A stretch of 64,000 nucleotides of DNA from Balanoglossus misakiensis (taxonomy: Eukaryota > Animalia > Hemichordata). Below, one piece after another: positions 26,555-61,630 of the stretch (positions are counted from its first letter, which is position 1; each line of letters begins with the position of its first letter). The notes under the pieces were generated by a model. That model saw only the letters and a list, made by a program, of their open reading frames with translations. It searched no databases and was not told the DNA's origin. Made by a program: the position numbers and the translations under genes. The stretch covers positions 10,560,461-10,624,460 of the forward strand of contig CM082596.2 of assembly GCA_040954595.2 (NCBI GenBank). Direction: 5' to 3'.

Positions 26555-26601
26555 TGAAATTTGGGTAGCTTACATGGTAACACAACTCAACAGAAAACAC
26601 T

Positions 26602-30889: not shown

Positions 30890-30892
30890 AAA

Positions 30893-35772: not shown

Positions 35773-35889
35773 AAGTGAACTGAACAGTTGAACTGATCAC
35801 AGTGACATTTGAGTATTCTGCCATTTTGAGATTTTTGTGATTTCCTTGTTATGTACTTTCATGATACGACATGCGCACACACTTTCTGT

Positions 35890-35902
35890 AAAGAAAGAAA
35901 GG
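35890..35902 (+). other. Polypurine tract of Gypsy element 2
   Basis: AAAGAAAGAAAGG directly before the 3' LTR. Confidence 0.85.
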
Positions 35903-36093
35903 TGTAACGTTATGGACAAAAACATGAGCACCCCCCCCCAGTAGAGTAGTATGTGCTGTGCGCATGCGTTGTTGTGTTCGTTAGGTGTTCTAGTTACTGA
36001 TTAAAACCTACATGCGTGGGACAAGTTGTTCGTTACGAAATAGCGTGTTTCAGTCGTTATTTGAGAACGTCATTTTCGAGGCATGACGTTACA
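35903..36093 (+). repeat. 3' LTR of Gypsy element 2
   Basis: Direct repeat of 31245-31434. Confidence 0.96.
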
Positions 36094-39000: not shown

Positions 39001-42000
39001 CATTGTACACAGAATACATGAGTTGAAATAGTTTGTCTGGTCACAATATGTCTATAGACACATCACGTACATAGATATGAATGCAAGAATGGACACAGAT
39101 CATTTATGAAGTCAATGTGAACAACTATACTTCATGTCAGTACATTGTAAACAGAATACCACAGTTGTAATAATTTGTCTGATCACAATATGTCTATAGA
39201 CACATCACGTACATGGACATGAATGCAAGAATGGACACAGATCATTTATGAAGTCAATGTGAACAACTTTACTTGAAGTCAGTAAATTGTAAACAGAATA
39301 CCAGAGTTGTAATAATTTGTCTGGTCACAATATGTCTATAGACACATCACGTACATGGACATGAATGTAAGAATGGACACAGATCATTTATGAAGTCAAT
39401 GTGAACAACTTTACTTGAAGTCAGTACATTGTAAACAGAATACCAAAGTTGAAATAGTTTGTCTGATCACAATATGTCTATAGACGCATCATGTACATGG
39501 ACATGAATGCAAGAATGGACACAGAACATTTATGAAGTCAATGTGAACAACTTTACTTGAAGTCAGTACATTGTAAACAGAATACCACAGTTGTAATACT
39601 TTGTCTGGTCACAATATGTCAATAGACACATCACGTACGTGGACATGAATGTAAGAATGGACACAAATCATTTATGAAGTCAATGTGAACAACTTTACTT
39701 TTAGTCAGTAAATTGTAAACAGAATACCAGAGTTGTAATAATTTGTCTGGTCACAATATGTCTATAGACACATCACGTACATGGACATGAATGTAAGAAT
39801 GGACACAGATCATTTATGAAGTCAATGTGAACAACTTTACTTGAATTCAGTACATTGTACACAGAATACATGAGTTGAAATAGTTTGTCTGGTCACAATA
39901 TGTCTATAGACACATCACGTACATAGATATGAATGCAAGAATGGACACAGATCATTTATGAAGTCAATGTGAACAACTTTACTTGAAGTCAGTAAATTGT
40001 AAACAGAATACCAGAGTTGTAATAATTTGTCTGGTCACAATATGTCTATAGACACATCACGTACATGGACATGAATGTAAGAATGGACACAGATCATTTA
40101 TGAAGTCAATGTGAACAACTTTACTTGAAGTCAGTAAATTGTAAACAGAATACCAGAGTTGTAATAATTTGTCTGGTCACAATATGTCTATAGACACATC
40201 ACGTACATGGACATGAATGCAAGAATGGACACAGATCATTTATGAAGTCAATGTGAACAACTTTACTTGAAGTCATTACATTGTAAACAGAATACCAGAG
40301 TTGTAATAATTTGTCTGGTCACAATATGTCTATAGACACATCACGTACATGGACATGAATGCAAGAATGGACACAGAACATTTATGAAGTCAATGTGAAC
40401 AACTTTACTTGAAGTCAGTAAATTGTAAACAGAATACCAGAGTTGTAATAATTTGTCTGGTCACAATATGTCTATAGACACATCACGTACATGGACATGA
40501 ATGTAAGAATGGACACAGATCATTTATGAAGTCAAAGTGAACAACTTTACTTGAAGTCAGTAAATTGTAAACAGAATACCAGAGTTGTAATAATTTGTCT
40601 GGTCACAATATGTCTATAGACACATCACGTACATGGACATGAATGTAAGAATGGACACAAATCATTTATGAAGTCAATGTGAACAACTTTACTTCATGTT
40701 AGTACATTGTAAACAGAATACCAGAGTTGTAATAATTTGTCTGGTCACAATATGTCTATAGACACATCACGTACATGGACATGAAAGCAAGAATGGACAC
40801 AGATCATTTATGAAGTCAATGTGGACAACTTTACTTCATGTCAGTACATTGTAAACAGAATACCACAGTTGTAATAATTTGTCTGGTCACAATATGTCTA
40901 TAGACACATCACGTACATGGACATGAATGCAAGAAGGGACACAGATCATTTATGAAGTCAATGTGAACAACTTTACTTGAAGTCAGTAAATTGTAAACAG
41001 AATACCAGAGTTGTAATAATTTGTCTGGTCACAATATGTCTATAGACACATCACGTACATGGACATGACTGCAAGAATGGACACAGTTCATTTATGAAGT
41101 CAATGTGAACAACTTTACTTGAATTCAGTACATTGTACACAGAATACATGAGTTGAAATAGTTTGTCTGGTCACAATATGTCTATAGACACATCACGTAC
41201 ATAGATATGAATGCAAGAATGGACACAGATCATTTATGAAGTCAATGTGAACAACTATACTTCATGTCAGTACATTGTAAACAGAATACCACAGTTGTAA
41301 TAATTTGTCTGATCACAATATGTCTATAGACACATCACGTACATGGACGTGAATGCAAGAATGGACACAGATCATTTATGAAGTCAATGTGAACAACTTT
41401 ACTTGAAGTCAGTAAATTGTAAACAGAATACCAGAGTTGTAATAATTTGTCTGGTCACAATATGTCTATAGACACATCACGTACATGGACATGAATGCAA
41501 GAATGGACACAGATCATTTATGAAGTCAATGTGAACAACTTTACTTGAAGTCATTACATTGTAAACAGAATACCATAGTTGTATTAATTTGTCTGGTCAC
41601 AATATGTCTATAGACACATCACGTACATGGACATGAATGCAAGAATGGACACAGATCATTTATGAAGTCAGTGTGAACAACTTTACTTGAAGTCATTACA
41701 TTGTAAACAGAATACCATAGTTGTAATAATTTGTCCGGTCACAATATGTCTATAGACACATCACGTACATGGACATGAATGCAAGAATGGACACAGATCA
41801 TTTATGAAGTCAATGTGAACAACTTTACTTGAAGTCATTACATTGTAAACAGAATACCATAGTTGTATTAATTTGTCTTTTCACAATATTTCTATAGACA
41901 CATCACGTACATGGACATGACTGCAAGAATGGACACAGTTCATTTATGAAGTCAATGTGAACAACTTTACTTGAATTCAGTTCATTGTAAACAGAATACA

Positions 42001-42412
42001 TGAGTTGAAATAGTTTGTCTGGTCACAATATGTCTATAGTCACATCACGTACATGGACATGACTGCAAGAATGGACACAGATCATTAATGAAGTCAATGT
42101 GAACAACTTTACTTCATGTTAGTACATTGTAAACAGAATACCAGAGTTGTAATAATTTGTCTGGTCACAATATGTCTATAGACACATCACGTACATGGAC
42201 ATGAATGCAAGAATGGACACAGATCATTTATGAAGTCAATGTGGACAACTTTACTTGAAGTCAGTAAATTGTACACAGAATACCAGAGTTGTAATAATTT
42301 GTCTGGTCACAATATGTCTATAGACACATCACGTACATGGACATGACTGCAAGCATGGACACAGATCATTTATGAAGTCAATGTGAACAACTTTACTTGA
42401 AGTCAGTAAATT
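36094..42412. repeat. 142-bp satellite array (about 44 monomers)
   Basis: Same monomer and orientation; ends at ...AGTCAGTAAATT at the Ngaro junction. Confidence 0.99.
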
Positions 42413-42550
42413 TAGGCCCAACCCCTTGGGTGTAATTGGGGGCGCCCTCTGTGTAGTGCGTCTTCCCGCCTTCCGGAGAGAATTGCTACTTTTGTAGGGC
42501 TTCCGCCATCTTGTAGAGTCACTTTTTCCGAGCAGTCGCTCGCTTAAAAC
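42409..42550 (+). repeat. Split direct repeat A1
   Basis: Matches 61189-61330 with one substitution. Confidence 0.95.
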
Positions 42551-42593
42551 TTCTCCCAAAAATCCGTCTTTTTCGCCGCTTTGTCGTCACAAT

Positions 42594-43751
42594 ATGTCCG
42601 ACCACTCAGACAGCGAAACTCTCCCACAGTCCGAAAGGCGGACTCCCAACTGCTCTGGCTGCAAACAAGCAGTAAAAGGGCATCGCGCTCTTGGATTACA
42701 GCCAGGCCCAAACTGCACAGGCGTGCCCCAACCGCAAGGCGCAGATGGAAGCTCTGCCATTCCCACCATATCCGTCGTCGTCGAACAGACTGGCTCACTC
42801 CAGCTCGAAGATCTACAAGCCAGACAGGCAGAACTGTTACAGGAAAAGCAACTCCTACTGCAGAAACGAGAGCAGCGTGCATTACAGACCCGCTCCAGCA
42901 TCTCAGAACTAGACCACGAACTTCCCGCCCTCCGAGTGCGGGTTGCCAACACAAGTCCCATGCAACCGCCTCCATCGATCCCTTTATCGTCGGGCAACGG
43001 CTGTCCACCAACACTGGACACCCTTCGTCAAAACCCAGCGGCCAACCAAGCAGTCGACGCACAACTCTCTCACATCGTGAATTCGGCATTTGGCGCCTCC
43101 GCATTGCCAAAGTCCATCGGACAGTCTACTCGTGCTGAATGGCCGATCGGCTACATGTCACAAGGTAAGCCAGGAAAGTCCCCTCGTGACTCTCAAGCCC
43201 CTAGCTTCGCAGACGAATCCAGAGTGAAATGGCCACATTTGCGCCTACCTCGCGAAAAAGGAGGAAAAGTCCCCAAATTCGACAACTTAACCATCGCACA
43301 ACTGGTCAGAGGTGAATTAGAAATACTCAACTCCGTCTACCTGCCCATCTCGTCTGAGGAACGCGCTCCAAGATCACTGCATCTCCAGAACTTAATGAGA
43401 CTCGCTCATAAGCACGATTGGTCAGACGTACTGAATTTCCATGGTACCATCTTAGAAAAGATACAAAGCGCAGAACTACGTTGGCAAGACTGCTTCGACC
43501 GTTATGAAAAAGAACTTCTCTCACCCGACACCCTGAAATCCGTCAAACAAGGCACTGATAGCGGCAAGACACAGGCCGTCAAGAAGAGCGATATTTGTTA
43601 CAAGTACAACCTCCAGACATGCGAATGGGGCGACAAGTGTTTTAGACGCCACATCTGCTATCGCTGTTTCAAAATTAACAACACAGCCACACCTCACAGC
43701 GGCAAAGATTGCCCACTCGCCATCAGCAAGAAGAATGACACTCCCAAATAG
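42594..43751 (+). CDS. Gag-like ORF1 of the Ngaro element (385 aa)
   Basis: Open ORF after A1; Q/L-rich coiled coil; HDWSDVLNFH helical region; C-terminal Cys/His finger CYKYNLQTCEWGDKCFRRHICYRC...H...C. Confidence 0.8.
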   Translation: MSDHSDSETLPQSERRTPNCSGCKQAVKGHRALGLQPGPNCTGVPQPQGADGSSAIPTISVVVEQTGSLQLEDLQARQAELLQEKQLLLQKREQRALQTRSSISELDHELPALRVRVANTSPMQPPPSIPLSSGNGCPPTLDTLRQNPAANQAVDAQLSHIVNSAFGASALPKSIGQSTRAEWPIGYMSQGKPGKSPRDSQAPSFADESRVKWPHLRLPREKGGKVPKFDNLTIAQLVRGELEILNSVYLPISSEERAPRSLHLQNLMRLAHKHDWSDVLNFHGTILEKIQSAELRWQDCFDRYEKELLSPDTLKSVKQGTDSGKTQAVKKSDICYKYNLQTCEWGDKCFRRHICYRCFKINNTATPHSGKDCPLAISKKNDTPK

Positions 43752-43961
43752 TAATTCACCTATTTCGGATTGAACTTCAGACGTTGGGTTGCATCCCACG
43801 TTCACAGACTACATTGTGTTCTCTCTCTTCCTCACAGAACACTTCTGCATCGGAAGAATTTTCTAGCGCTCGGTTACCGTCCAACGCTAACATTCGGGCT
43901 CCCTGGTCCCATACACCACGCCCTTCATGTATCTCAGGCCATACAGCCGCATCATCGACAT

Positions 43962-44619
43962 TGTGTCTCACTCAGCGAACGAGGACCCACCGTTCTCGTC
44001 CACTTCAAACATTGTAACAATTCCTGTGATTTCAGCTTCGCCTCTGACATCGCGGTATTTTATCATTCCGTCGAGCACTTCCCCACCTTCGGAATTTTCT
44101 TCAAACTGTGCCCAAGGAGGTCTCTACACGCCGTCGCGTCGTCATGGACCTCAACTTTCCATCATCTGACATTGTGTCTCACTCAGCGAACGAGGACCCA
44201 CCGTCCTCGTCCACTTCAAACATTGTAACAATTCCTCCGATTTCAGCTTCGCCTCTGACATCGCTGTATTTAAACTTTCCTCGAGCACGTCTCCCTCATC
44301 GGAACTTTCTTTAGCCATATATGTGTCTCACTCAGCGAACGAGGACCCACCGTCCTCATCCACTTCAAACATTGTAACAATTCCTCCGATTTCAGCTTCG
44401 CCTCTGACATCGCTGTATTTAAACTTTCCTCGAGCACGTCTCCCTCATCGGAACTTTCTTTAGCCATATATGTGTCTCACTCAGCGAACGATGACCCACC
44501 GTCCTCGTCCACTTAAAACATTGTAACAATTCCTCCGATTTCAGCTTCGCCTCTGACATCGCTGTATTTAAACTTTCCGTCGAGCACGTCTCCCTCATCG
44601 GAACTTTCTTTAGCCAATA
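43962..44619 (+). repeat. Internal tandem repeat, 4 copies of a ~149-bp unit
   Basis: TGTGTCTCACTCAGCGAACGAGGACCCACCG... starts at 43962, 44173, 44322 and 44471. Confidence 0.92.
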
Positions 44620-44627
44620 TTTGTGCC

Positions 44628-46164
44628 TTGCATGCGCAAGTTTCTACATCCGGGTTACCAAACTACCAAGGTCTCAAATATCCCGTTCCGACTAAATTAG
44701 TGTTGCCGTTATGGAGATCACTGCTGGCACATTATGCTGACAATATCATTTGTGACTATCACCATCTTGGCTGGCCTATCGGTTATACCCGTGACACGTT
44801 ACCAGTCTTCGACATCCGTAATCACCCTTCGGCCTTGATGTTTCCCGACGATGTGGACCACTTCATCAGCACTGAAGTCGCCGCTGGGGCCACAGCCGGA
44901 CCTTTCACAATCAGCTTCAAACTGTGCCCAAAAAGGACTCTTCACGCCGTCGCGTCGTCATGGACCTCAGCTTTCCAGAACACTTTCTGTCAATGACGGA
45001 ATCTCTTCAGACTTTTATGATGGTTATCACATAAAACTGTCGTACCCATCTTTAGATCATTTCTCACAAATTATCCAGGACAAAGGCCCCGGTTGCCTGT
45101 TATACAGAGAGACTTACGCCGAGCATATCGGCAAATTTTCATTGACCCTCGAGATTATAATCTCCTTGGTTTTTCATGGCATCATTTATTCTTTTTTGAT
45201 CGTGTTTTTCCCTTCGGGCTTCGCTCTGCTGCATTAGCCTGCCAACGTACCACAAATGCAGTCATGTATTTATTTAGACAGAATGGTTAGGCTGGCATCA
45301 ATTATTTAGATGATTTTGGGGGTGCAGAGGCGCCAGACAAAGCCATGGCAGCCTTTGAATCCCTTGGTCGACTTTTATCACAGCTCGGTCTAGAGGAGGC
45401 GCAGGATAAAGCAGTAGCGCCGTCCACTTGCATGGTTTTTCTCGGTATTGAATTCGACACTGTGTCTATGACCATGCGCATTCCAGCACACAAGTTATCC
45501 ACCCTACTCACAGAGCTTGATGAGTGGGACACAAAAGTCTCTGTTCCCAAGCGTCAATTTCAGTCTTTGTTAGGCAAGCTTAATTCAGTTGCCACATGTG
45601 TTCGCTCAGGACGAGTGTTTTTCTCCCGTATGTTACAGTTACTTAGACAGCAGTTTAAATCACCTCGCATTTTTCTAGATTCGCAATTCTTCGCTGCCTT
45701 AGTTTGGGGGCGTACCTTTTTACCTTTTTACAACGGAGTATCTGTTATCCCAGCTTCTAGATGGAGTACACCAGATGCCGTTTTTTTTCTACTGACGCCT
45801 GCCTCTCAGGCTGCGGGGGCTTTTCTCAAGGACTGTATTTTCACACAGAATTTCCTTTACCTGTTACTAGTCAGGGTTTACATATTAATGCGTTAGAACT
45901 TTTAACAGTGCTTGTTGCGTGTCGTCTGTGGGGCCATCTGTGGAAAGGCCAGCGCATTCAGGTGTTTTGCGATAATATGGCAACAGTCACTGTCATTAAT
46001 TCAGGTCGCTCACGAGACCTTCATATGCTTCAATATTTACGAGAGTTATGGCTAGTGTCCGCACTCAATAGTTTTGAACTTAAAGCGGTGCTATTCAGGG
46101 TCAGGATAATCGCTTAGCTGACCATTTAAGCAGATGGCACATTTCTCAGCATCACAGTTTTGAA
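44628..46164 (+). pseudogene. Ngaro reverse transcriptase / RNase H, frameshifted
   Basis: Motifs spread across frames: GWPIGY, TVPKKDSSRRRVVMDLSFP, DLRRAYRQI, PFGLRSA, NYLDDFGG (~45300), FLGIEFD, TDACLSGCGG, HINALEL, CDNMATV, ADHLSR. Several frameshifts and a TAG near 45288. Confidence 0.9.
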
Positions 46165-46198
46165 AACACAACGACATAGAAATCCCAATTTCCGAAAA
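46165..46198 (+). repeat. Left TIR
   Basis: AACACAACGACATAGAAATCCCAATTTCCGAAAA; reverse complement of 60778-60811 with 2 mismatches. Confidence 0.92.
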
Positions 46199-46727
46199 AC
46201 AAGGTTGTTTGAGATTTTTTTGACAAAATAGCTCAAAATCCTTATTAAATTATATTGATTCTTGTATATTATCAATCAAAAATTAAAAAGCTAAAAAATA
46301 TAACTTTAAACTGACTTTTTTTCTTAATATTCTTCTCAAATAAGGAAAACACTGGAATTTGTGTCTTTGGTTAATATTTAGGAAAAACATATATTTGGAA
46401 TAATTTCCCAGAATTGCCTTGTCAGACTTTTAATTTTCCTCAGAAAAAATACGCACAACTTATACTTGCTTTTATCCTTGGACAAATACTTATTTTTTTA
46501 GCATTTGTTCATAACTTGTAGCAACAAATGTTGATGAGACAAGTTTTTTTCTTGGAAATATACAAACATGTAAAGAATGGCTTTTCGGACAGAATATTTC
46601 TATAGAAAATCAGAGTTTTATTGCACTTAAAAATAATACATCAAGAATTGACAAAGAAAAATCAGAATTCAGACATTCAAAAGTGTACTTAATTTTTCTA
46701 TTGAAAAAAATGCTTTCTTTTACTGTA

Positions 46728-47638
46728 TCTCTGCCAATCGGCAGAAAGTCTGCCTTTTAGCCTTCCAAGCAAGATACAAGATAGTCAACTCTGCCAATTG
46801 GCAGAGGCCAGAGACAAGATTGCTGACTCTGCCAATCGGCAGAGGCCAGAGACAAGATGGCTGACTCTGCCAATTGGCAGAGGCTAGAGACAAGATGGTT
46901 GACTCTGCCAATCGGCAGAGGCCAGAGACAAGATGGCTGACTCTGCCAATCGGCAGAGGCCAGAGACAAGATGGCTGGCAGACAAGATGGCTGCAGACTC
47001 TGCCAATCGGCAGAGGCCAGAGACAAGATGTCTGGCAGACAAGATGGCTGGCAGACAAGATGGCTGCAGACTCTGCCAATCGGCAGAGGCCAGAGACAAG
47101 ATGGCTGGCAGACAAGATGGCTGCAGACTCTGCCAATTGGCAGAGGCCAGAGACAAGATGGCTGACTCTGCCAATTGGCAGAGGCCAGAGACAAGATGGC
47201 TGACTCTGCCAATCGGCAGAGGCCAGAGACCAGATGGCTGACTCTGCCAATCGGCAGAGGCCAGAGACAAGATGGCTGACTCTGCCAATCGGCAGAGGCC
47301 AGAGACAAGATGGCTGGCAGACAAGATGGCTGCAGACTCTGCCAATCGGCAGAGGCCAGAGACAAGATGGCTGGCAGACAAGATGGCTGCAGACTCTGCC
47401 AATTGGCAGAGGCCAGAGACAAGATGGCTGACTCTGCCAATTGGCAGAGGCCAGAGACAAGATGGCTGACTCTGCCAATCGGCAGAGGCCAGAGACAAGA
47501 TGGCTGACTCTGCCAATCGGCAGAGGCCAGTGACAAGGTGGCTGACTCTGCCAATCGGCAGAGGTCAGAGGCAAGGTGGCTGACTCTGCCAATCGGCAGA
47601 GGTCAGAGGCAAGCTGGCTGATGCTGCCAAGTGGCAGG
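46728..47638. repeat. Left subterminal 38-bp tandem array
   Basis: Unit GACTCTGCCAATYGGCAGAGGCCAGAGACAAGATGGCT; some units carry an extra GGCAGACAAGATGGCT. Confidence 0.96.
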
Positions 47639-48243
47639 ATTTTTGAAAGCACAACTATTTTTAAAGCCCCATGATCACAGATTTTTTTTACTTTTTTTCA
47701 GTATTTTTTTTGTATGTGTATGAAATCAACCTCCAGTTCTACTTCCTGAATTACGATGAAATGCACACTAAGAATCTCAACATAGTCTGTATATGATAAA
47801 TGTTAAGAATTTTGATATTATCATCTCAAATATTGCTAACAATAGGGCACAAAATACAAAAAAATACCGTCAATGAGACTGATACACTCACATTTTGGCA
47901 GAATGGGTTTTAATACTTAAATATCTGAAAACAACAAGTAGATACAAAATTAAGATACAAGTACTTCTATGTTACGAATTTGATCAGTAATTAAAGATAC
48001 AAAAACTAAATTACAACAAATAAAAAATTGTCAAAAATTAATAGAAGTTGCGCATATACATGTATGTGTTCATAAACCTGTATCCCAAATTTCAAAGCAA
48101 TCATTTTACATCACCTGATTTGAGTTATCCCTAAGACATTCCCAATAAATGTCAAGCAATAAGACAAGCAGTTTTAAACAAAACAATATTTGTTCAAAAT
48201 CAAAAACACAAATATGCAAATATCACAGAATTGTACAATGTGT

Positions 48244-51200
48244 CTAATCACTTGCTTCTTGCATAGAGACATCACTGCCAGTGTCAGCTTCATTCTCCAA
48301 ATGATACCCAAAGTTTTCAACTTTCATCCTGGCATGTTGGACTTGTTTCTCGTCGAGATCAATGCCAATGGCGTTCCTGCCGGTTGACAGAGCAGCAATC
48401 ACAGCAGATCCTGCATTGTAAATAGATGGATTTGTTACTTACTCATAAAATGCATTTAATTTACTAGAATGAAATACATTTTAACACAATACACTCTGTA
48501 TGACCTTAAAGGGACAAGCACATGTGATCATTTTGTGTGTATTTGGCTTTGACTCAGGGATAATGTTTGCATACACAAACAAGTATGATATTTACTATGA
48601 AAGTATGTGTTAGAACAAAACTTAAAAAGGTGTGTTTCCTATAACATTACACTTTAAGAGTAACATCAGTAAGTCAGAATATTCTTTTTCTACTTTTTTG
48701 TTGTTGAATGAAAATGCAATAAATTATGCTAGGAAGAAAATCTTTGCAATGTGATAGCAAAATAATCATGTTGGAATTTCATAAACAGAAAAATCCTTCC
48801 AAAAAATGCACAACAACAATATCAGTACAAACCTGTGCCACAGCATGCATCCAGGACCCATTGCTTATGGTAGGAGAATGTACTAATTATGGATTCCATT
48901 AGTTCAACTGGCTTTTGATCTGCATTGATTATCACACCATCTCCATCTCTGTCCAGTACAGGCTGTTTGCATTGCCATAGATTGTGTCGCTGTCTTGATG
49001 GTCCTGTGGCCAGGTTCCTGCTGACATGGTTGTCACTAGTCCAGTACCCGATAACAATTGGATGAACTGCCTGGGTTAGAGTTTGTGAATCTGATTGGGT
49101 AAAAGAAAAAAAAATCTCTTTGACCATTGTTTTTAAAATACACCCTCCTTTAAATGTTTGGTCAACCAATTGAAATGCAATCAACAAATAGTAAAAAAAA
49201 ATAAAAAAGTAAACAAAAAAACAGGAAAACATTTTAAAAATACAAATAAAATTATGAAACATAAACATCACTGCATCATTACACCAAACTTGGTAAATGG
49301 GTAGTGATGTTATGTCAATAATGCATACAATCTTAATTACTGACACAAAATACACTAACCTTGTCCTTTAATGTTACAGTGTGTCGATATTCTCCTGTTG
49401 CATTGTGTCTCATTGACAGCCACTGTTGCTGCTCGGTGGTGAGACCACAGTACACAACACAATTCCGTGATTTAAATCTGTCATCATTACTGTATTTTGT
49501 CATTTCACTTATTGCCTTTGTTGCACTCAGGCAATGTTGGCCACCAATCACGTTGTACGTGTAACCATTGATCTGTAAAGCAACACAGTGAACAGAATAG
49601 TGTGAGCATTGTGAAACACTGATTTTCTTTGAAGTAGTCCTGGTAATCTGCATGTCCAAATCCCAAGTACAAGCTGACAACACAGCAATACTAAAATGCA
49701 ATACTACTTAGGGGATCCAACACATTTGGCATGGCTTCTCATACTGTAGCAAAACACAGTAAGCAGTACTGAAGGATCAGAAGAAGACCTTACCTTTTTG
49801 CTATCGAATTCTTGTGGTGATTCAACCCCATCCACGATAACACACAGCGGTTGGTAGGATTCGTCAGCAAAATCCTCCATCTGCTTGATGAGGTTTTTTA
49901 AAAACACCTGATCAGGCTCTCTGATATTCCCCTTAACTTCTAAAACTTCAACACTGATCTTGTGCATACCTGTTAATTCAATTGGTAAGATGGCAAAATG
50001 TTTTACTACAATTCTAAATTCATATTATCCCATGCTACCGTCCACCCTTCTGATTGGACGAGAGCTCAACCCAGTAATGGTAATATACTGCTTTATCACG
50101 GCTAGCTGAACTAGAATGCAGTAGCGAAAATGTTGGGTTAAACCATAGGCATACGGGGGGGGGGGGGGTTATTGCTTGAATAATAAACAGTTGATTAGGA
50201 CATGTGAGAAAAAAACAGTCTTGTATTGTCACGCAATTCTTTGGGGGACCACTGGAATTTGGTTTGGGACCAGTGAAAAAAAACGGTCATATGCACTCGT
50301 CATGTGACCAGTGACAAATGAAGAAAATTCTCAGGCCCTGTACTAGACAACAATTTATTTTTTAAGGTTTGCATGTTTTCACCTATATTCATAAGCCTGT
50401 ACATACAAATTGAACAGATTTGTCTCTTTCACCCTACTCACCACAGTATGCTTGCTGCACATCTTGGGCAATAGTGTCGGGACAATCGGTGTTGGAAGTT
50501 GCCTTCTTCTTAAGTAATACACTTGACACTTCAATATTGTCATCGTGTTTTCTTCTCCTCTTCTTTTTTGTTTTTTTCAGAGATGCTGTAGATAGTGAGA
50601 AAACTGGCTTGGTAGTATCATAAAAAACTTACACAGGTCATAAATGTCCTAGTATAAACGGTTAATGCACTGCACATGGTAATAGATAAAAGTTCTACCT
50701 TTTACTACACTATAAAACACACTAGAAGTCTATTCTACAAAAATATATACATTGTACATTTGATTCAACAGGATGAACTCCAGGACCATAAGCTATAACA
50801 GAGTAAATTCAGTCCATTCAACAATGGATAATATAAACAATGGACAGCTGTGACTGTTTATCTATTTACACTCCCTCCAACTCTGGCCCAGGTGTTGTGT
50901 TAGGTGTGAAATACCATGCTGATAAAGCTTGATATGCATGGGTCTCGGATTTTGTCACCCCTTTTTTCTTATCACTCAGTATAACTCACCTTACTGTCCG
51001 CTTTTGGCATCTCCCAGAGCTAGAACTGGAACTACCTCCTTCTCCATTGCTGTCATCTGACCCCGAGTTGTCGTCTCTGTCTTCATCTAGTGATGAGTTG
51101 GTTGTGGATAAATCACTGCTGACACTAAGCCCAGCCTCCCGACGAAGATCTTTATAGAACTTCACAAATTCATCGACACTGGAATGCTCTTTGAATTTGT

Positions 51201-52194
51201 TACTGAACTCAGAGCGGTTCCACTCAAATTTTTGTCTGTTCAGGACAAATGCGTCATTTGCCCCATTTGCACCTTCAAAAAAAACCTGTGAAATGAACAT
51301 TTTCAGGCATAGATAAGAAAGGTGACATGCTATAAACAACAAAAAAAAAGGTTGTTCTCCAAACCACTGACCAGCAAAACCAGATATTTGGGAAAGGGTT
51401 GTTCCCTAATTTAGTGACAGTGACTTCGATTTTGCGTAGAAAGCAGTATACTGTGACTAGCAAAATATGTCAATCCATCAGTCTGAATGTAATGCTGTGA
51501 ACAAACAGTCTCTGAACGTAGCTCTGCGTACAGGTCTGTGTGTTCCCGGCGTGGTGGAGGCCGTGTAACGCCGGGAGCACACAGACCTGTACGCAAGGCT
51601 ATCTCTGAACGCAGTGCATGAGGCCTTATTATTCGGCCCCGAGAACACAAGCATATATCAGCCGGTAAAGGTTCCAGCTTGATGCGTTTTTTTTATAGCT
51701 TTGACGACCATGAATATCGGTCTTATACACGGAAACAGAGACTGAGAGAGTCCCCTCTTTCCGTGTACATGTATTTTGACCCGAGTTTTAGAAAATAGAA
51801 CTTGAAGACAAGCGACTTTGGATGACGACCATTCTTACCTTGATATGTGTGTCCTTGTACGCTTTACAAGTTTTAACCGGCCCGAACGGTTCACCATTTC
51901 GCTTGTTGACAAGCCTTGAAGTTTTCTTGGATTCGTGGACATTGACGTAAATACGTCGATCTTCCTCAACAAACCACCAAGCACGCATTTTTTCAATGAT
52001 AGAACAGTATAACGTTGGAAAGTTTTCGCTGTGCATGCACTCTTCTCACTCTCAGGTCTGAATCGAAACTGTGAGCACTTAGCGCAAATCGTCGGTATAA
52101 ATACCATCGCTGTACACAGAAACAATAGAATTTTTTGTCGTTCTATTGTCGAAATTTCCGGCAATCCATAGATTTTCCATTGTTTCATAGACAT
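48244..52194 (-). CDS. Spliced cargo gene: acidic/basic N-terminus, ParB/Srx-like domain and C-terminal half of a beta-class N6A/N4C DNA methyltransferase (probably incomplete; 5' end uncertain)
   Basis: GT-AG exons on the minus strand: ~52036-51839, 51285-~50990, 50585-50442 (KKTKKKRRRK), 49969-49794 (NIREPDQVFLKNLIKQME...QPLCVIV), 49572-49360 (YNVIGGQHCLSATK...CVVY...HN), 49090-48833 (HNLWQ...QKPVELMESIISTFSYHKQWVLDACCGTG), 48410-48244 (SAVIAALSTGRNAIGIDLDEKQVQHA...TAG). The last junction is in phase and rebuilds SAM-binding motif I. Confidence 0.72.
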
Positions 52195-52638
52195 GTTTAT
52201 ACGTTTCGGCGATTCACACCTTTGCCTCGCGTGCGGCCTCCGTGCCTGGATACGAGTTCTTAACCCTTAACCTTTACTATATTCAAATAAGCATCCCAGA
52301 AGAGGTAAATCATTACAGTGTAGGTTGACCCAGCCTGGAAAAAGCACTTCAATGATTGACTATTTTTCAATAAAATAATACAATCTGACAGATATATGTT
52401 ACTGAAATCTTTCATGCGTTATGAATTTAAAGTATGACTACTTTCTAGTATTTCTAGCTGGTAAAAGTCCAGTTGTTTCCCATACTTGACCGATACTTTG
52501 GATCGGAAACCCCTTCAATTGAATGGAATCTACTAGCTCGTCACATCACCAAACTAAGCTTGGTGCACGGCGTTTGAGGTCAGGTCTACTGCAAGGTACG
52601 TTCGGTCGTGTACGGGGCCATATTCTGGGCCCGTCAGC
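52195..52638. promoter_or_regulatory. Putative bidirectional promoter region between the divergent cargo and transposase genes
   Basis: Inferred only from the head-to-head gene arrangement and local CpG enrichment around both 5' exons. Confidence 0.35.
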
Positions 52639-55600
52639 ATGTCCCGTTCAAATGATTCTTTCAACGATACAAGCATTTTTTCGATATCCAACACCACTAC
52701 ACAATTTTCTTCAAGCTACGAAGAAGATCCGCAGCCTGCCTCCCGCTCCCCCGTGGTGAACGCTGAACTGGTGGTATCTCTCTGTCAACCCGACATCACG
52801 AACGCTAGTTCGATCAACGCACAATCACCCCACGGTGGAGTGACCGTGATCAACGGCAGTAATTTGTCATCAACCAGTACGCAATATGATTCAAATGACG
52901 AAGATATCGTACTGAGCGATCGTTCGCTCGAAAATACGTGCTCACTTCTGCAATTTGACAGCGACGATGACCTGGAGCTGGAATTCATGCCAGTGGCCTC
53001 ATCAAGTCCTCGCCCACAACGTCAACGGATTTCTGCACCTAAACGGCGTCGAATTTCTCAGCCGATTAGAGACCCACTATCAGTATTGTGCCAGCAGTGT
53101 TGTAGTGACTCGTGTATGGACCATTTGTCAAAGCACGATGTGACGGCTGCAGAACGAAAATATAAAGCGTTGGGCAACGAAACAAAACAGCGCCAGTATA
53201 TTCTTGACACAATTCGACAACATTCGTTCAAAAGGTATCTGTCAACTTCAAGTTCAAGTTCAAGGAGGAGAAAAGTTGTGGTTGAGACCAACTTGGTGTT
53301 GATGGGCCGACCGGTTTGTCCTGCAGCTTGGCGGCATGTTCACAACGTCAGCGAATACCGCTGGAAAAGCTGTGAACTGGACTTTATCAAAGGTTTGTTT
53401 TCACACTATTTAATAATCACTCAGTTAAAAAGCGAAAGAGTTGCAAATTGTAACACTATTTTCACGAAATGTTTGGAGTCATATACTATTGATACTTTTT
53501 TGTGCATTTTAGCAAGAAGAATGGAATTTTTTTTCCAGTAAAGAGTTCTGTATTCAGATATTACTTTACTCACAAGTGTGTGTTGCAATGTGCAGCTAAT
53601 ACAATATTGATCATTTTCTACTCAGACATAGAAGCTGTTGAACATAAGAATATTTGGAGGACAGGCTTTAAAGACAAAACCACAGATGCAATTGCTTGGA
53701 TGCGTCATCTATTTGAACGCATAGGTGATTACATGCCACATAAGGAAGAGATTCATCTGCCATCATGCTACACGAAGAAGTCCCTGTATGAACGCATGAC
53801 AAAGGAGATGAAAGCCCGTGGTCATCCTGAAAGACATATTATTTGCTATGATTATTTCACCAGGATATGGAGTATCCATCTCTCAGAGTTCATTATACCA
53901 AAGGTACATTTAATCTTATTGATAATAATATATTATTTTTATTATAAAAACACACTACATAGCTATACTGCCTGTAGTCAATGTGACACACGTCCAATTT
54001 TACTGTCTGTCTGCTGACTTTAGTACATTAACAAAATAATTTTTTTGTACATCAATCTTGCAGAGAAATGAATTTGTGAAGTGTACTGACTGCACAGAAC
54101 TAGAAGAATTGGTGGCGAAAGCTAAAACAGACCATGAAAGAACAAGAGTCCGGTCACTCATGACTCTACACATGGAGCAAGTAGAGTAAGTAAAGTTTGT
54201 GTTGTTATCCTATATTTGGCTCACATTTGGTATACCAATCCAGGGGTCTCTGCACGTGCCCTTTTTACTTGCTGGAAGGAAAAATCTGCTTGCCCACCAT
54301 CTTGGATCAACTTAGCTATGGTGTATACCTTATTTTGTATGTGTAATTGTCTCTAAGTACCCTTTCCATCTCAAAATTATTTCGAAGCCCACCCCACCCC
54401 CCAAAAGATTGCTTGGCAGCATGTTTCAATTGTTGTCATGTATTAGTTTTGAGGGGGACCTATACTTTTCGACGTAAAAAGGGTCCTTGGACTCGCTTTG
54501 TGTAATCGCTAGTGCTATTCCAGAATCCAGACATGGGATTTAACAAGAAGATTTCAAATTGCAGATTTAGAATTTTCACATTCCATAATGTGAGCACCTT
54601 TGTCTCAAGTAATTTTTAATTTTATATTATCTGTTTGTTAAGAACTGAACGCAAGCGATACCACTACAACCGAGAAAGAGCAGAGAAGGAGCCAGAGGAA
54701 ATGTTGACTATTATAATCGATGGAATCGACCAGAACAAAACAAACTTGCCTCATCTGTACAAGGAAGACAAGAGTACCAGCAATCTACTGCGTCTCAGAA
54801 CACATATTACAGGTGCGTTGACCGTGTATGGATTTGTGAACTGATTAAGTCTTTCTTAACACATCCATTGGACTATCCAATAATTGTAAATTATTCACAT
54901 TGTGGTTTATCAATTAATGAACAGTAGCCATAGTGCCATGAATTTCATTTTATATTGTACTCTCAAAGTCATGTCAAAATGCACAGTGTTGTACAATTAC
55001 CTTTAACTGGGATGTGTGTGATGCCCTCTAATACTGACAAATTTATGTTAGTATTTAATTGTAGAATTAATTTGTAGCCTTTTAAAGTACAAATGAGAAA
55101 CTTACCAGATAGGTGTTACTGTATTGTCAATAATTGCAGCTATTCTTTAATTAACCCTTTCACCCCCAGTTCCCTGTGTAGAGGTCCAACTTCATTATAG
55201 AAACAAATGGACTTAGGACAAACCGTGGTGGTGAAAGGGTTAAGCATGATTTCCAGGCGGTTAGTGACATGTAACTATTTAAGTTGTGTTTCAGTATGAA
55301 CATCTTGTCACTGTTGTAAGGTTTCAAGTACCATGTTTTTTTATTTATTTCAGGGTCCCTTGTGCATACTGGTGTAACTGGTGGCAAAATACCTTTTGTA
55401 TATTTGGATGTCAACCACATTCCACATGACTCCAACCTCACTATGAATGTGCTTCTTGAAATCCTCAATGAATGTGGTGATCATTTAGCCAAGGTATTAT
55501 ACTTACAACTCGACAACTGCTTCCGTGAAAATAAAAACAGATATTTACTGTCCCTTCTGCAACTACTGGTTCAACTCGACATATTTGAAGAGGTAAGTTG

Positions 55601-58600
55601 ATTATTAATTGGCATGTCAGTCTTTTGTTTAATTTTTAGCTTTCCTGTCAGTAATGGTGGAGCTTGTCAGACAGGCGGATTGTCCTCTGTCTTCCGCCTG
55701 TCTTCTTCTCTTCTCTGAAATCCCTTTTAGTGAAATTTGCAGTTATCAGCTGGGCCTACTCAACTCATACCATGCAAACGTTATAATAATTTAGAAATAT
55801 TTTACAGTACATCTTTAAACTATTTACTAAATTTGTGGCATGGAAGTTTACTTACAAAATTTCAACATTTCAAAATACATCTTAGGTATTCACTCATTCA
55901 TGTGAGCGAATCCAAAGATGGTATTGGATGTATATATTTATATATATATATATATAATTATCTATGTTTATAATAACAGGTGTTAGTGAACTTTCTACCC
56001 GTTGGACACACGCACGAAAATGTCGACCAGATGTTCTCGAAAATTGCAACGGAACTGAGAAGAACAAATGCATACACCATAAATGGTAATATGTTGTGAT
56101 ATTAAATATTTTATATAACCCTGTGTAGTTGTTAAAGGGGAAATCCAGTCCAGCTGATTTATATATAATGTGGTAGCTTTGAGGTCACTCTTTCAGAAAA
56201 ATAACAACATTTTTTCGCCATGTTTAAGTCGCGTGATATTTTACAAACTTATGAGGGAAAGTTGGCAGAAGTTCCAGTATGGCGTTTACTGTAATTTGAA
56301 TCATGGGAAAAATACAGGGCGAATGTTTTTTTCAATGGCAACAATTTCTTTTTTTCCATAAAGCCACAGTATCAGTGATTGTTGGCTATTGGTTTTTGTT
56401 CCTTGTTTCAACAGTCTTGTCTTGTTCAACTACTCAAAGTACAGTGAAATGCCAAATATCTAGTTTCTCAACACAGCCATTATGTGTACAATAAGCAATA
56501 TTATTGTTGACAATATGAACATATATGGTCCATTTTTTTTTGGGGGGGGGTCAAGATTGTACTTATGATATTGACGTTGACAGTATCTTGTTTTATCAGA
56601 TCTGGAGAGCACAGTTGTGGGATCGTACACGCCTGTTATCAAATGGAGAAATCTTACAGAGAAACCCATCCTGAATATTAAAGAATGGCTGATACCCCAC
56701 ATGGCTGGGAAAATGCAGGGACATTCCAAACAGCATAACTTCAGATTTTACAAGGCTAATGGTGTTGCTTTCATGCAGTATAGACTGTGGTCTACTGATC
56801 CTTGGGAGCCAAGCCAGATGGATGAGAATGGGGAACAACTTCCAGGAATCAACTGTTTTAAGGTGAGATTTTCAACACTCATCACAAACAGATAGAGACC
56901 CTTGATGTAACCTATCACAAACAGTCCCTTGATGTAACCAATGTTTGCTTGTCTTTCACTGTATAACAAGAGCCCCAACCAATAATTTGGTGAGATGACA
57001 TATTATGGTTTTAGCTCTATCTGTCTGGATTCATTTCACATATGTGCCTACATCAGTTTTGGCCCCTGGAAAATATATGTGGACATACATATGAATGGCA
57101 TATTTTTTTTCACAATGCGACCAAAATGGCCATTCAGCAGCCATATTATTACCAATAGCCATTACTCAAAATATTCAAGAACTGATATTGTTGATGTTTG
57201 GGTTACGTCCGTCCAGAGTGAGTTCTCAGAAGTGCCTGGACCGAATTCATTCAAACTTGGTACAAAGACAGAACAAAACAGAACTCAACAAATTATCAAA
57301 TAAATTAAGTAAAGTTGCTTTACTCAAAACATCCATTTTCCTTTCAGAGTATGCCATGTCTGGATGATGTGCCGGCCTATGTGCTTCCAAGCATTGAAAA
57401 ACTGGATGTGAATTCTTTGAGGAGAGACGTACCCAATGGATTTGGTGTCAGAATGCCACCGTCTGGAGTACAATGGTGGAATAACTTCCTTCGTAATGTG
57501 GAAGATATTGAAAAGGTAGCTACAAAGACAATTCTTATTAAAACTTGTGTACTAGTATTTAGTTGAAAACAAAAAGTGAATCCATGTGAATATCTCTTTA
57601 TATATTATTGCGTGAATACATGGTAACTCTCGTTGGCTCACATTTGGCATACCAATGTGTGTATAGTATAACAAGGCATCTGAATGTGACAGTGACATTG
57701 TCACTATTTTGTAACTTTAACCATCAATGAGCATGTCAGTCAGCTAACACAAATAATGTATTGCTGTCCTTTCAATAATTCCAGGTTCCCACTCAATCAG
57801 AAGAGTTATGGCTGCTGCCCCAAATAAAGGAAAAAGCAGAAAGAAAGAAGGCTGACAGACAATGTCTTCAAAATGAAGAACTTGACAGTCAAGTGTCAAA
57901 AATTAGAGAAAAGTTGACAAGAACGTGTCAGGAGGTGAGCTACAAAAAATGGTGTAATATTTCCCAACAACACGCATTGACATATTTTAAGTATTTCTAT
58001 TGACATCTTGTGATTACCATGTCATTTTAAACTCATCAAGTAAACAGAAGGTTTTTTGTGCAAGGTGACTGTTTGAGAAATTATCATTTACTTTTGCCAG
58101 AAAGTGGAACAGAAAAAAGTTTTGTTGAATAGCAAAAAATACATGGACTGATGACTTGTTAAATAGCAATTTTTAATATTAACCTTATATGCACTTTCAT
58201 TACATGCAGACATTGTCGTTTTCTTAGGAGAGTGGCTAATCATAAATCATCATTTCAATCTACAGATTACTGTCCAGGGGATGCGGCCCACCATTCATCA
58301 TGTTGACAGCTATGACTGTATTAGTGTTGGTGACATGGTTGCAGTTTACTGTCCGACGTACACAGAGATTCCTCAAATTGGAAAAGTGACGGAAAGAAGG
58401 GAACAAGAATTTGTCCTCCAATGGTATGAAGGGACATGGACAAGTTCCTGGAAACCATCCTACCAAACCCAGGGAAGGAAGCAGGTGCTGTACACGGACA
58501 CACAACCAGTTCATGCAGCAATTTTTGGGGGGTTCAAACTAAATGGCAGAAAGATGCTGGGTAAAGAAACAAAGCTTGTCCTACAAGAAAAGTACAAGAA

Positions 58601-58625
58601 TGCCATATCAAATATTGTGCAATAG
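52639..58625 (+). CDS. 10-exon DD(D/E) transposase, Sola1-like, about 869 aa, with a C-terminal Tudor/SH3-like domain
   Basis: Exons 52639-53392, 53626-53903, 54064-54185, 54643-54812, 55354-55592, 55980-56085, 56600-56862, 57348-57515, 57785-57934 and 58266-58625. All junctions are GT-AG and phase-compatible, 2610 nt in total. Motifs: VCPAAW, HLP, KCTDC...H, IIIDGIDQ, LQLDNCFRENKN, FLPVGHTHENVDQMFS. Confidence 0.85.
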
Positions 58626-58916
58626 ACTATTATTTAAAGAATAATGTATGCCACAAAGACTGGACTGGACTCCTTGTTTTGTAGTAAATTACATTTTTGT
58701 GTTTTTAAGAGATAACAATGTCACCAAACACTGTTAAAATGATTAAAGATTTATGAAACCAAACTTTCTCTTTAATTAATCGATTTAGTGCCAGAGAGAG
58801 AAAGAGAGAACAAAAGTGACTTTGTACGTTGTGATGGATGTTTCTTAGTTGATGACATAAACTTTACCAGTCTCCCTGCCAATAGTGAGTGGGTGGATTA
58901 CACAGTGTACCAGTAG

Positions 58917-60495
58917 GGCCCGGAAATCTTGCTGATTAGCAGGGAGTCTAGTACAGCCTGGACGTCTTGCCAATTGGCAGAGAGTCTAGTACAGCGTGGA
59001 CGTCTTGCCAATTGGCAGAGTCTTGTACAGCTTGGAAATCTTGCCGATTGGCAGAGAGTCTTGCACAGCCTGGACATCTTGCCAATTGGCAGAGAGTCTT
59101 GTACAGCTTGGAAATCTTGCCGATTGGCAGAGAGTCTTGTACAGCTTGGAAATCTTGCCGATTGGCAGAGAGTCTTGCACAGCCTGAAAATCCTGCCAAT
59201 TGGCAGAGAGTCTTGTACAGCCTGGAAATCTTGCCAATTGGCAGAGAGTCTTGTACAGCCTGGAAATCTTGCCAATTGGCAGAGAGTCTTGTACAGCCTG
59301 GAAATCTTGCCAATTGGCAGAGAGTCTTGTACAGCCTGAAAATCCTGCCAATTGGCAGAGAGTCTTGCACAGCCTGAAAATCCTGCCAATTGGCAGAGAG
59401 TCTTGCACAGCCTGGACATCTTGCCGATTGGCAGAGAGTCTAGTACAGCCTGGACATCTTGCCGATTGGCAGAGAGTCTTGTACAGCCTGAAAATCTTGC
59501 CGATTGGCAGGAGTCTTGTACAGCCTGAAAATCCTGCCAATTGGCAGAGAGTCTTGCACAGCCTGAAAATCCTGCCAATTGGCAGAGAGTCTTGCACAGC
59601 CTGGACATCTTGCCGATTGGCAGAGAGTCTAGTACAGCCTGGACATCTTGCCGATTGGCAGAGAGTCTTGTACAGCCTGAAAATCTTGCCGATTGGCAGG
59701 AGTCTTGTACAGCCTGAAAATCTTGCCGATTGGCAGGAGTCTTGTACAGCCTGAAAATCCTGCCAATTGGCAGAGAGTCTTGTACAGCCTGAAAATCTTG
59801 CCGATTGGCAGAGAGTCTTGCACAGCCTGGACATCTTGCCGATTGGCAGGAGTCTTGTACAGCCTGAAAATCTTGCCAATTGGCAGAGAGTCTTGTACAG
59901 CCTGAAAATCTTGCCGATTGGCAGGAGTCTTGTACAGCCTGAAAATCCTGCCAATTGGCAGAGAGTCTTGTACAGCTTGGAAATCTTGCCGATTGGCAGA
60001 GAGTCTTGCACAGCCTGGACATCTTGCCGATTGGCAGAGAGTCTTGTACAGCCTGAAAATCCTGCCAATTGGCAGAGAGTCTTGTACAGCCTGGAAATCT
60101 TGCCGATTGGCAGAGAGTCTTGCACAGCCTGGACATCTTGCCAATTGGCAGAGAGTCTTGTACAGCCTGGAAATCTTGCCGATTGGCAGGAGTCTTGTAC
60201 AGCCTGAAAATCCTGCCAATTGGCAGAGAGTCTTGTACAGCTTGGAAATCTTGCCGATTGGCAGAGAGTCTTGCACAGCCTGGACATCTTGCCAATTGGC
60301 AGAGAGTCTTGTACAGCCTGGAAATCTTGCCGATTGGCAGGAGTCTTGTACAGCCTGAAAATCCTGCCAATTGGCAGGGAGTCTTATACAGCCTGGAAAT
60401 CCTGCCGATTGGCAGAGAGTCTTGTACAGCTTTGAAATCTTGCCGATTGGCAGGGAATTCTAAGTCGTTACACTATTCCTGCCAATTGGCAAGAT
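58917..60495. repeat. Right subterminal 38-bp tandem array (about 40 units)
   Basis: Unit CTTGCCRATTGGCAGAGAGTCTTGTACAGCCTGGAAAT with 36-bp variants; its core is the inverted counterpart of the left array core. Confidence 0.96.
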
Positions 60496-60777
60496 TTTTA
60501 AGCTATGCAAGACTCCCTCCACATTGACAATTGAAGTGTGCTTGTTTTTCTGTTGAAAAAAGTCACATGAAATTTATCATCCCTCAAACTTATCTTTTAT
60601 TCAATAAAAATAATAATAAGTGGTGTTTAATGTAACTCTTATGAACTTTTCCATTGAAAAATCTATTTCAAAATTTCTTTTTGACCACCATGGGTTTTTT
60701 CAAAGGAATTTCGTAATTTATGTTTGGGCTGACATTGATAATGAGTATTTCCATACAAAAATCCGATTTTATCTTCG

Positions 60778-60811
60778 TTTTCGAAAATTGGAATTTCTAT
60801 GTCGTTGTGTT
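60778..60811 (-). repeat. Right TIR
   Basis: TTTTCGAAAATTGGAATTTCTATGTCGTTGTGTT. Confidence 0.92.
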
Positions 60812-60899
60812 TGAATTTCATGAGTTAACCAATAGTATGCATGTGATAGAGGTGGCAGTGCCAGTCACATATTTCACTAATTTTCACTATGACTTCTAG
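60812..60899 (+). pseudogene. C-terminal remainder of the Ngaro RT/RNase H ORF
   Basis: Continues the frame of ADHLSRWHISQHHSFE as FHELTNSMHVIEVAVPVTYFTNFHYDF*. Confidence 0.7.
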
Positions 60900-60975
60900 T
60901 AAGTTCCTAGGCAGTTTTGTATTTTACTCGCTAATGGGAACTCCCTGAATGCTTCCCCTCCCCTGGTTTGGCGGC

Positions 60976-61192
60976 TTGGAGCTGGTTTTGTCAAACTCTT
61001 TTTCATCTGCATATTAAAGATTTTGCCAAGTTTCCGCCAACCCATGAGTGTGTCGCATTCTGTTCCTTCCCATTAGCCCACTAGTTTTCAAGCATTTATA
61101 CTGTTCGAGTGTTTCAGGTGTATTTGTATGCAAGACGTGTTTTCCTGTACAATTATTATATAAGTAGAGTTCCACAGAGGCAGCCACTAATT
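60976..61192 (+). repeat. Split direct repeat B1
   Basis: 217 bp; matches 61414-61630 with one substitution; overlaps A2 by AATT. Confidence 0.95.
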
Positions 61193-61330
61193 TAGGCCCA
61201 ACCCCTTGGGTGTAATTTGGGGCGCCCTCTGTGTAGTGCGTCTTCCCGCCTTCCGGAGAGAATTGCTACTTTTGTAGGGCTTCCGCCATCTTGTAGAGTC
61301 ACTTTTTCCGAGCAGTCGCTCGCTTAAAAC
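61189..61330 (+). repeat. Split direct repeat A2
   Basis: Copy of A1, directly after B1. Confidence 0.95.
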
Positions 61331-61413
61331 CCCACCCACCACTACCCATGGCTTTTCCTTGTATGTTTGTTATATTTATTTTATTTACCTTTATTCACAT
61401 GGTTTATAAGTGG

Positions 61414-61630
61414 TTGGAGCTGGTTTTGTCAAACTCTTTTTCATCTGCATATTAAAGATTTTGCCAAGTTTCCGCCAACCCATGAGTGTGTCGCATTCTG
61501 TTCCTTCCCATTAGCCCACTAGTTTTCAAGCATTTATACTGTTCGAGTGTTTCAGGTGTATTTGTATGCAAGACGTGTTTTCCTGTACAATTATTATATA
61601 AGAAGAGTTCCACAGAGGCAGCCACTAATT
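61414..61630 (+). repeat. Split direct repeat B2 (element 3' end)
   Basis: Copy of B1, followed directly by satellite. Confidence 0.95.

Follow-up and report, generated by a model that had tools for sequence, protein, structure and literature searches.

A Sola1-like DNA transposon of the hemichordate Balanoglossus misakiensis combining an open transposase frame with an internally deleted, putatively non-catalytic ParB-like/methylase-fold accessory gene

We analyzed a stretch of 64,000 nucleotides from Balanoglossus misakiensis (assembly GCA_040954595.2, contig CM082596.2, positions 10,560,461 to 10,624,460 of the forward strand; hereafter the window, with coordinates counted from its first letter). 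It contains a 14,647-bp cut-and-paste element with termini AACAC...GTGTT (46165–60811), delimited by junctions and an empty-site contig, which carries an open transposase frame together with a deleted accessory (cargo) gene. The explanation we favor, with moderate confidence, is a Sola1-like transposon with an intact transposase whose head-to-head accessory gene probably codes for a non-catalytic DNA-binding helper; the window copy of that gene is without ∼310 residues and encodes no fusion protein.

The element is flanked by a TGAA target site duplication (46161–46164 and 60812–60815, both plus strand). Its terminal inverted repeats lie at 46165–46198 (plus strand) and 60778–60811 (minus strand), matching over 35 nt at 94% in blastn, with weak likeness extending ∼300 bp in a longer local alignment. 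Two sequencing runs of one sample (X1 and X2), possibly the source of the window, yielded the empty site, as an X1/X2 contig runs along the left flank to 46164 and then directly into the right flank. Further X2 contigs connect the left end with unrelated DNA, two of them at 46164 and two at 46165, with loose consensus. A 2-bp GA duplication with termini 1 bp longer would also fit the junctions, but the 4-bp duplication is preferred, given that X2 has a loose end ahead of 46165 and that a second element, L009, described below, is flanked by a duplicated TTAG.

The termini and duplication agree with the listing for Sola1-1_Ec32 of the brown alga Ectocarpus (AAC termini, 4 bp; PMC12477816). The label Sola1-like is taken from these two features. 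Sola2 was rejected, its DF(A/S)ENY, SDG, and FATSHGK motifs being absent in a by-eye reading against the accessible Sola2 alignment (PMC3627910, file S10). A previous sequence-only reading of this stretch had placed the gene on a cut-and-paste transposon, and the ends, target duplication, empty site, and transposase bear this out.

The transposase gene (52639–58625, plus strand) has 10 exons and an ∼870-aa open frame, reconstructed by splicing against Saccoglossus kowalevskii P0159, to which it is 56% identical over ∼800 columns. The exons occupy 52639–∼53392, 53626–53903, 54064–54185, 54643–54812, 55354–55592, 55980–56085, 56600–56862, 57348–57515, 57785–57934, and 58266–58625. AG and GT are present at all eight inner exons, and four alternative donors of the first exon all leave the frame open. 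The protein contains DUF7869 (PF25273) and three acidic motifs of DDD type (IIDGID, QLDNC, and GHTHENVD), of which the DNC and GH motifs are, we assume, similar to those of Sola1. The last exon encodes a conserved C-terminal domain (53% to P0159, no Pfam match) that may, as a guess, be a chromatin-reader-like barrel. Viral contigs gave no match to the transposase alignment.

The cargo gene comprises seven exons on the minus strand, head-to-head with the transposase, and its ATG, at 51988, is separated from that of the transposase by 650 bp. The divergent spacer between both start codons (51989–52638) is not depleted in CpG (observed/expected 1.06 versus 0.37–0.47 in the gene bodies) and is likely the shared promoter of the two genes. 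Exon 1 (51839–51988) encodes an N-terminal domain without assigned fold and matches residues 4–65 of the Ptychodera flava homolog P0009 (tblastn, E = 0.002), while exon 2 (50990–51285, donor uncertain within 50990–51036) matches P0009 residues 58–125 (E = 1e-8). Exon 3 (50442–50585, acceptor uncertain within 50585–50627) holds a basic KKTKKKRRRK run, and its end matches the start of P0002; 10 open-frame combinations are possible at the joint of exons 2 and 3. Exons 4 (49794–49969) and 5 (49360–49572) encode the first and second halves of a putative ParB/Srx-fold domain, assigned from homolog matches and the fold of a homolog; exon 5 reads GGQHCLSA, without arginine, and ends in phase 0. After a 269-nt intron (49091–49359), exon 6 (48833–49090), which needs a phase-1 acceptor, carries methylase motifs X and I (ADQKP, DACCGTG), and exon 7 (48244–48410) carries motifs II–III and the stop.

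The joint of exons 6 and 7 is in phase through a GT..AG intron, and the pair matches PF01555 within positions 137–219 (137–192, E = 2.6e-4; 196–219, E = 0.11), in agreement with the motif X-I-II pattern previously recognized across them. P. flava models support the joints, with P0001 reading across exons 6 and 7 (70% identity to exon 6) and P0002 across exons 3, 4, and 5. All peptides quoted in the sequence-only reading are present on the minus strand and the exons it quoted are real, but it missed the start of the gene and two further upstream exons (51988–51839 and 51285 to ∼51000).

Joining exon 5 (phase 0) directly to exon 6 (phase 1) produces a stop after four codons, and a search of the 269-nt intron for a frame-restoring mini-exon gave 0 candidates. 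P0009 (722 aa) aligns in order to exons 1, 2, 4, 5, and 6, with its residues 336–638 finding no match in the window. The L009 element shows the same phases, its ParB exon ending in phase 0 and its exon-6-like exon starting in phase 1. Its motif I intron has an identical position, and the gap corresponding to the window intron is filled by four exons totaling 931 nt (310 codons plus one base). Because L009 has these four bridging exons between the same flanking phases, we conclude that the window copy lost the exons for a helical domain and the motif IV strand, and that the 269-nt intron marks the site of the ∼310 missing codons. Without motif IV and with the phase broken, the window copy therefore cannot encode a ParB–methylase fusion. 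The gene proposed earlier is real, but not the single fusion, as exons 5 and 6 are out of phase and ∼310 residues, motif IV among them, are gone.

Two further loci place the cargo gene next to this transposase. When prokaryote genomes were scanned with the transposase alignment, two of 22 candidates were confirmed, the loci L009 and L010, on contigs (G001:C41 and G002:C3) that are intron-rich and eukaryote-like and are filed in prokaryotic metagenome-assembled genomes. These contigs also bear microsatellites, one being 589 kb long, and are likely mis-binned. In both loci (2/2) the cargo lies upstream of the transposase on the opposite strand; the suggested association of gene and transposon accordingly holds in the window and in the two other loci, with termini found for L009 only. 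The L009 element measures 13,750 bp and has AACAC at its termini. Neither metagenome-assembled genome held a further cargo copy with the ParB part. At L010, the transposase is interrupted by a nested insert (14567–21330) whose 613-bp inverted repeats match at 99%. The P. flava cargo P0009 and transposase P0162, 28 accession numbers apart on one chromosome, were too weak a case and were not counted as linkage. In the sample of X1 and X2, the left end of the element occurs in high-depth variant contigs and exons 6 and 7 at one flat lower depth, a hint that most copies are without the cargo gene, depth being no copy number.

Perfect and near-perfect palindromes are arrayed inside both ends of the element. 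In the left array (46732–47598) the 12-bp (near-)palindrome TGCCAAT[TC]GGCA occurs 20 times, mostly with a 38-bp period, and the right array (58968–60491) consists of 41 copies of TGCC[AG]ATTGGCA with a 36–39-bp period. All 61 palindromes lie within the two arrays and none elsewhere in the 64 kb; the variant is a one-letter CpG change. Only the core and the period are common to both arrays, as the spacers differ. L009 has its own, different palindrome core, with 9 copies on the left, 38 on the right, and 0 elsewhere in 22.5 kb. The X1 and X2 contigs matching the 38-bp unit at 46780–47550 add up to a very high depth, which hints at an abundance of the unit in the genome, although depth is no copy number.

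To characterize the cargo family we searched 1.84 billion representative proteins with P0001, which gave 403 matches, the best 150 of which were examined. Named homologs among the matches listed come from P. flava, Holothuria, Patiria, Amphiura, the liverwort Riccia, and Ginkgo, and the closest named proteins are those of the hemichordates P. flava and S. kowalevskii. ParB-like, helical, and methylase parts are united in five distinct long proteins (P0009, P0013, P0014, P0057, and P0067). P0057 and P0067 show the same ParB-like plus methylase fusion in the Riccia and Ginkgo gene sets, with a motif different from that of the liverwort enzyme DN4MT1. In P. flava the homologs are spread over at least 13 contigs, mostly as fragments. 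P0001 matches PF01555 at 42.2 bits, over the cut-off of 26.7. On the ParB side, P0009 gave a weak match to phrog_1033 in PHROG (E = 3.3e-4), Pfam ParB_N (PF02195) had no match among six long homologs, and ParB profiles, including ParB_N and PHROG, had none among the window exons. Beyond these proteins, viral contigs showed no match to P0013, the best 20 of 134 phage tblastn records held weak matches to the methylase end only, and eight loci of a metagenome scan with P0001 matched over 17 residues of motif I.

We modeled the full-length homolog P0013 with AlphaFold (predicted local distance difference test score, pLDDT, 81 and predicted template modeling score 0.63 with a 74-row alignment; pLDDT 36 from the single sequence). 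Residues 442–663 resemble CcrM (Z 22.5, root-mean-square deviation 2.8, 211 aligned), and the top matches of this part are CcrM, M.BceJIV, PvuII, and MboII, with the N4CMT structure at Z 19.3. In this permuted Rossmann fold the motif IV strand stands ahead of motif I, and it is the first half that the window protein is without. Residues 113–234 resemble PadC (Z 9.7, root-mean-square deviation 2.6, 94 aligned), Srx (Z 8.4), and KorB (Z 7.9), and residues 107–376 resemble Pnob8 ParB-N (Z 9.4, root-mean-square deviation 5.2, 212 aligned); the Pnob8 and Spo0J (Z 5.9) alignments reach into the helical part. A profile search of PDB listed no ParB chain, and the Foldseek PDB list held methylases only. 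The full-length homolog is predicted to combine a ParB/sulfiredoxin fold, a helical domain, and a beta-class amino-methylase fold. The earlier assignment to beta-class amino-methylases is upheld by the PF01555 match of exons 6 and 7 and the CcrM-like fold of P0013, whose top matches are not ordinary host RNA or protein methyltransferases. The ParB-like assignment fares less evenly, being backed by the fold of the homolog and the weak PHROG match and by no profile match of the window exons themselves.

A quick midpoint-rooted tree of 65 methylase domains, built from the long rows after setting aside four near-duplicates, all short rows, N4CMT, and DN4MT1, unites nine named animal rows and three unnamed rows in one clade (Shimodaira–Hasegawa-like approximate likelihood ratio test, SH-aLRT, 97), nested in a 32-row clade (SH-aLRT 95) that includes the plants Riccia and Ginkgo. 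Two prokaryote-type ParB_N fusions fall outside the 32-row clade on long branches. The topology may reflect an old family of eukaryotes whose make-up is ultimately prokaryotic, the tree being no test of the donor. For the prokaryote-derived gene advanced earlier, a direct capture from bacterium to animal is not borne out, since the animal rows group with Riccia, Ginkgo, and unnamed rows. Six relatives (P0021, P0031, P0033, P0062, P0085, and P0129) end in Cys-rich fingers that match PHD or RING weakly; several keep an intact DPPY-like motif and are possibly active methylases of microbial eukaryotes.

The catalytic motif IV, (D/N/S)-P-P-(Y/F/W), belongs to the region absent from the window copy. 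Among the 11 animal-clade rows that cover it, none has the aromatic residue at position 4 (DMPK, DMPQ, DVPN, SIPE, DFPE, LLPT, DKPQ), and the loop after the motif is also gone in all 11; plant-side and unnamed rows read DIPY, DIPH, DLPR, DPPY, and DMPY, among others. P0012 and P0155 have lost motif I as well, and the L009 cargo, open for 551 aa over seven exons, has ISLDADC at motif IV and no QKP (motif X). GxxR is the nucleotide-binding arginine motif of the ParB/Srx domain; its arginine is absent from all six family proteins checked (GQHC, GQHT, GCHN, GNHT, GCNS at the site) and present in both prokaryote-type fusions, P0022 and P0135 (GMRR, GERR). Motif erosion on such a scale in open genes points to a role without need of methyl transfer. 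Writing of 4mC (N4-methylcytosine) or 6mA (N6-methyladenine), as previously suggested, fails for the window copy, whose catalytic half is missing, and judging from the motifs appears unlikely for the animal branch, where either the aromatic of motif IV or motif IV in its entirety is gone.

In the mechanism we propose, a full-length cargo protein would be made together with the transposase from the shared CpG-rich spacer and would enter the nucleus. Its ParB-like and helical domains would bind element-specific 12–14-bp palindromes at 38–43-bp spacing inside both ends, with the methylase fold serving as a DNA- or S-adenosylmethionine-binding and dimer module. The protein may then help to pair the ends, or protect them from host silencing, without writing a mark. 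Several observations weigh against this helper role. Subterminal arrays are classically transposase sites, in EnSpm and other elements. The L010 arrays are 18-bp repeats in direct orientation with no obvious palindrome, and at this locus the ParB-like and helical exons are present without a methylase match, its ends having been sought and not found; it supports the linkage and not the palindrome idea. The ParB Z-scores of 8–10 are moderately above the tool-reported background of 7–8, albeit with three concordant families, and the fold model is that of the homolog P0013 and not of the window protein. Finally, the motif IV D persists in 7/11 animal-clade rows, the third-place P in 11/11, and a W two places on in 10/11, and most animal rows preserve motif I (DxCxGTG) well, a combination that could mark an active enzyme.

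Such an enzyme would be an amino-methylase in full-length animal copies that uses a non-canonical D-x-P-x-x-W site to write 4mC or 6mA on its own element, the window copy alone being dead. Besides the recurring D, P, and W, it could draw on the conservation of motifs X and I in hemichordate, sea cucumber, sea star, and brittle star rows, on a fold that is that of a complete beta-class methylase, on plant-side relatives with DIPY or DIPH and unnamed ones with DPPY, and on the self-modification proposed for the Ectocarpus protein (Dinatale et al., PMC12477816). We consider it unlikely, as the stacking aromatic of motif IV and the following loop are missing in all 11 animal-clade rows, the L009 cargo stays open though motifs IV and X are gone, and P0012 and P0155 are without motif I. 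A more specific form, in which Sola1-like elements of hemichordates, echinoderms, and other animals would encode an active D-x-P-x-x-W methylase, load it through its ParB-like domain on parS-like arrays, and mark their own ends, seems distinctly unlikely. Possible but not probable is a passenger role, in which the transposon carries along an ancient, decaying enzyme and the arrays are bound by the transposase only: the P. flava models are mostly fragments, the window copy is deleted, L010 is without the methylase half, and the contrast between high-depth variants of the left end and flat depth of exons 6 and 7 goes the same way, as a hint only. Against it, the head-to-head layout is repeated in the window, L009, L010, and the brown alga, and the exon frames remain open at 23–26% identity between cargo proteins, an outcome not expected of long neutral decay.

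A further alternative is that the missing middle is an assembly error and the genomic copy complete. No listed contig spans the intron between exons 5 and 6, contig coverage running from the left end through exon 6 only, but run X1 contains 0.97 of 880 sampled words from 48100–57000, and an ordinary donor and acceptor bound this intron. Internal deletions are moreover common in DNA transposons, and we give an assembly error little chance. Least credible of all is a host gene lying by chance between transposon ends, despite homologs that are annotated as ordinary uncharacterized genes. The gene is enclosed by the termini of an element that has a target duplication and is itself nested in a retrotransposon within satellite DNA, and homologs are transposase-linked in 2/2 other loci; for the window copy, this notion is contradicted by the empty site, which is without the gene.

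The closest known system is Sola1-1_Ec32 of Ectocarpus, a 21.5-kb element with an opposite-strand ParB-like plus N4C/N6A methylase gene, for which self-modification has been suggested (Dinatale et al. 2025, PMC12477816); the same paper cites similar algal cases of such cargo. Likened by description only, it shares with the window element a large DDE/D make-up, AAC...GTT termini, a 4-bp duplication, a long imperfect terminal inverted repeat, and the opposite-strand ParB-like plus methylase gene, and differs in length (21.5 versus 14.6 kb), in protein size (1104 versus ∼700–780 aa), and in its host, a brown alga rather than animals (PMC12477816). The architecture has thus been described, although the literature searched held no report of it from an animal; Sola1, ParB, and transposon occurred in combination only in PMC12477816. 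This search for animal ParB–methylase transposon cargo did not extend to Iyer 2011, Repbase, or the FASTA supplements of PMC12477816, which may hold cases.

Other systems are likewise partial parallels. Red algal Plavaka elements of Bostrychia have tandem inverted-repeat arrays beside the ParB-like PAG3 gene, proposed as ParB sites, and share PF01555 and ParB-like domains as transposon cargo, but in PAG2 and PAG3 these are separate genes (PF01555 with SET; ParB with 2OG oxygenase) on EnSpm/Plavaka elements (bioRxiv 10.1101/2025.02.11.637652). Phage and bacterial ParB_N plus N6_N4_Mtase fusions (P0022, P0135; BFVD) have the same domain order, and phage 'ParB/Sulfiredoxin' models align over ∼600 columns (E = 1.9e-10); they differ in keeping GxRR and DIPY/DPPY, in having no introns and a shorter linker, and in falling outside the eukaryote-looking clade of the quick tree. 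Bdelloid N4CMT (PMC8885841, PMC10406627) and Marchantia DN4MT1 (bioRxiv 10.1101/2021.02.12.428880) share a beta-class fold in a eukaryote, but they are active host enzymes with SPPY or TSPPY, and no ParB domain is described for them. The cargo family profile matches CcrM at E = 1.8e-13 versus N4CMT at E = 0.02, the N4CMT chromodomain had no match in a domain search of the cargo homologs, and identity with DN4MT1 was rejected on motif IV. DAM-like domains of DIRS and long terminal repeat (LTR) retrotransposons also put a prokaryote-type adenine methylase on eukaryotic transposons, the DIRS copies being likely inactive; unlike the cargo, they belong to another methylase group and lie inside retroelement polyproteins without ParB (PMC4738411; bioRxiv 10.64898/2026.05.21.726589).

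These findings extend to animals a transposon accessory architecture described in 2025 in a brown alga. In the animal branch the catalytic motifs are lost, yet the gene, its intron positions, and the head-to-head layout are kept, providing a testable case for the use of a second protein by DNA transposons, with candidate binding sites already visible. Sea cucumber and sea star proteins that UniRef calls 'DNA methylase N-4/N-6 domain protein' are probably cargo of transposons, and their names should not be taken as evidence of 4mC or 6mA in animals. If, on the other hand, the altered site were active, it would constitute a new, second, transposon-borne source of bacterial-type 4mC/6mA marks in animals.

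The surroundings of the transposon are repetitive throughout. A 142-bp satellite of ∼245 copies, mostly 89–100% alike, makes up the window (1–64000) outside three inserts (26376–31086, 31229–36093, and 42413–61646). The DNA transposon is nested in the third insert, a retrotransposon whose direct repeats are split; the left part of this retrotransposon (42409–46164, plus strand) has gag- and reverse transcriptase-like frames, and its right part (60812–61630, plus strand) is defined by the split repeats, the junctions, and the empty-site contig. The repeats pair 42409–42558 with 61189–61338 and 60976–61192 with 61414–61630. This host retrotransposon is presumably of Ngaro type; little sequence separates its RNase H from the right repeats, and a recombinase frame was not seen. 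Rfam gave 0 matches within 42000–62000. Three 149-bp tandem copies lie at 44173–44625, inside the left part. The other two inserts resemble Gypsy-type LTR retrotransposons (26376–31086, minus strand; 31229–36093, plus strand), are separated by one satellite unit, and both have long but stop-split gag-pol frames.

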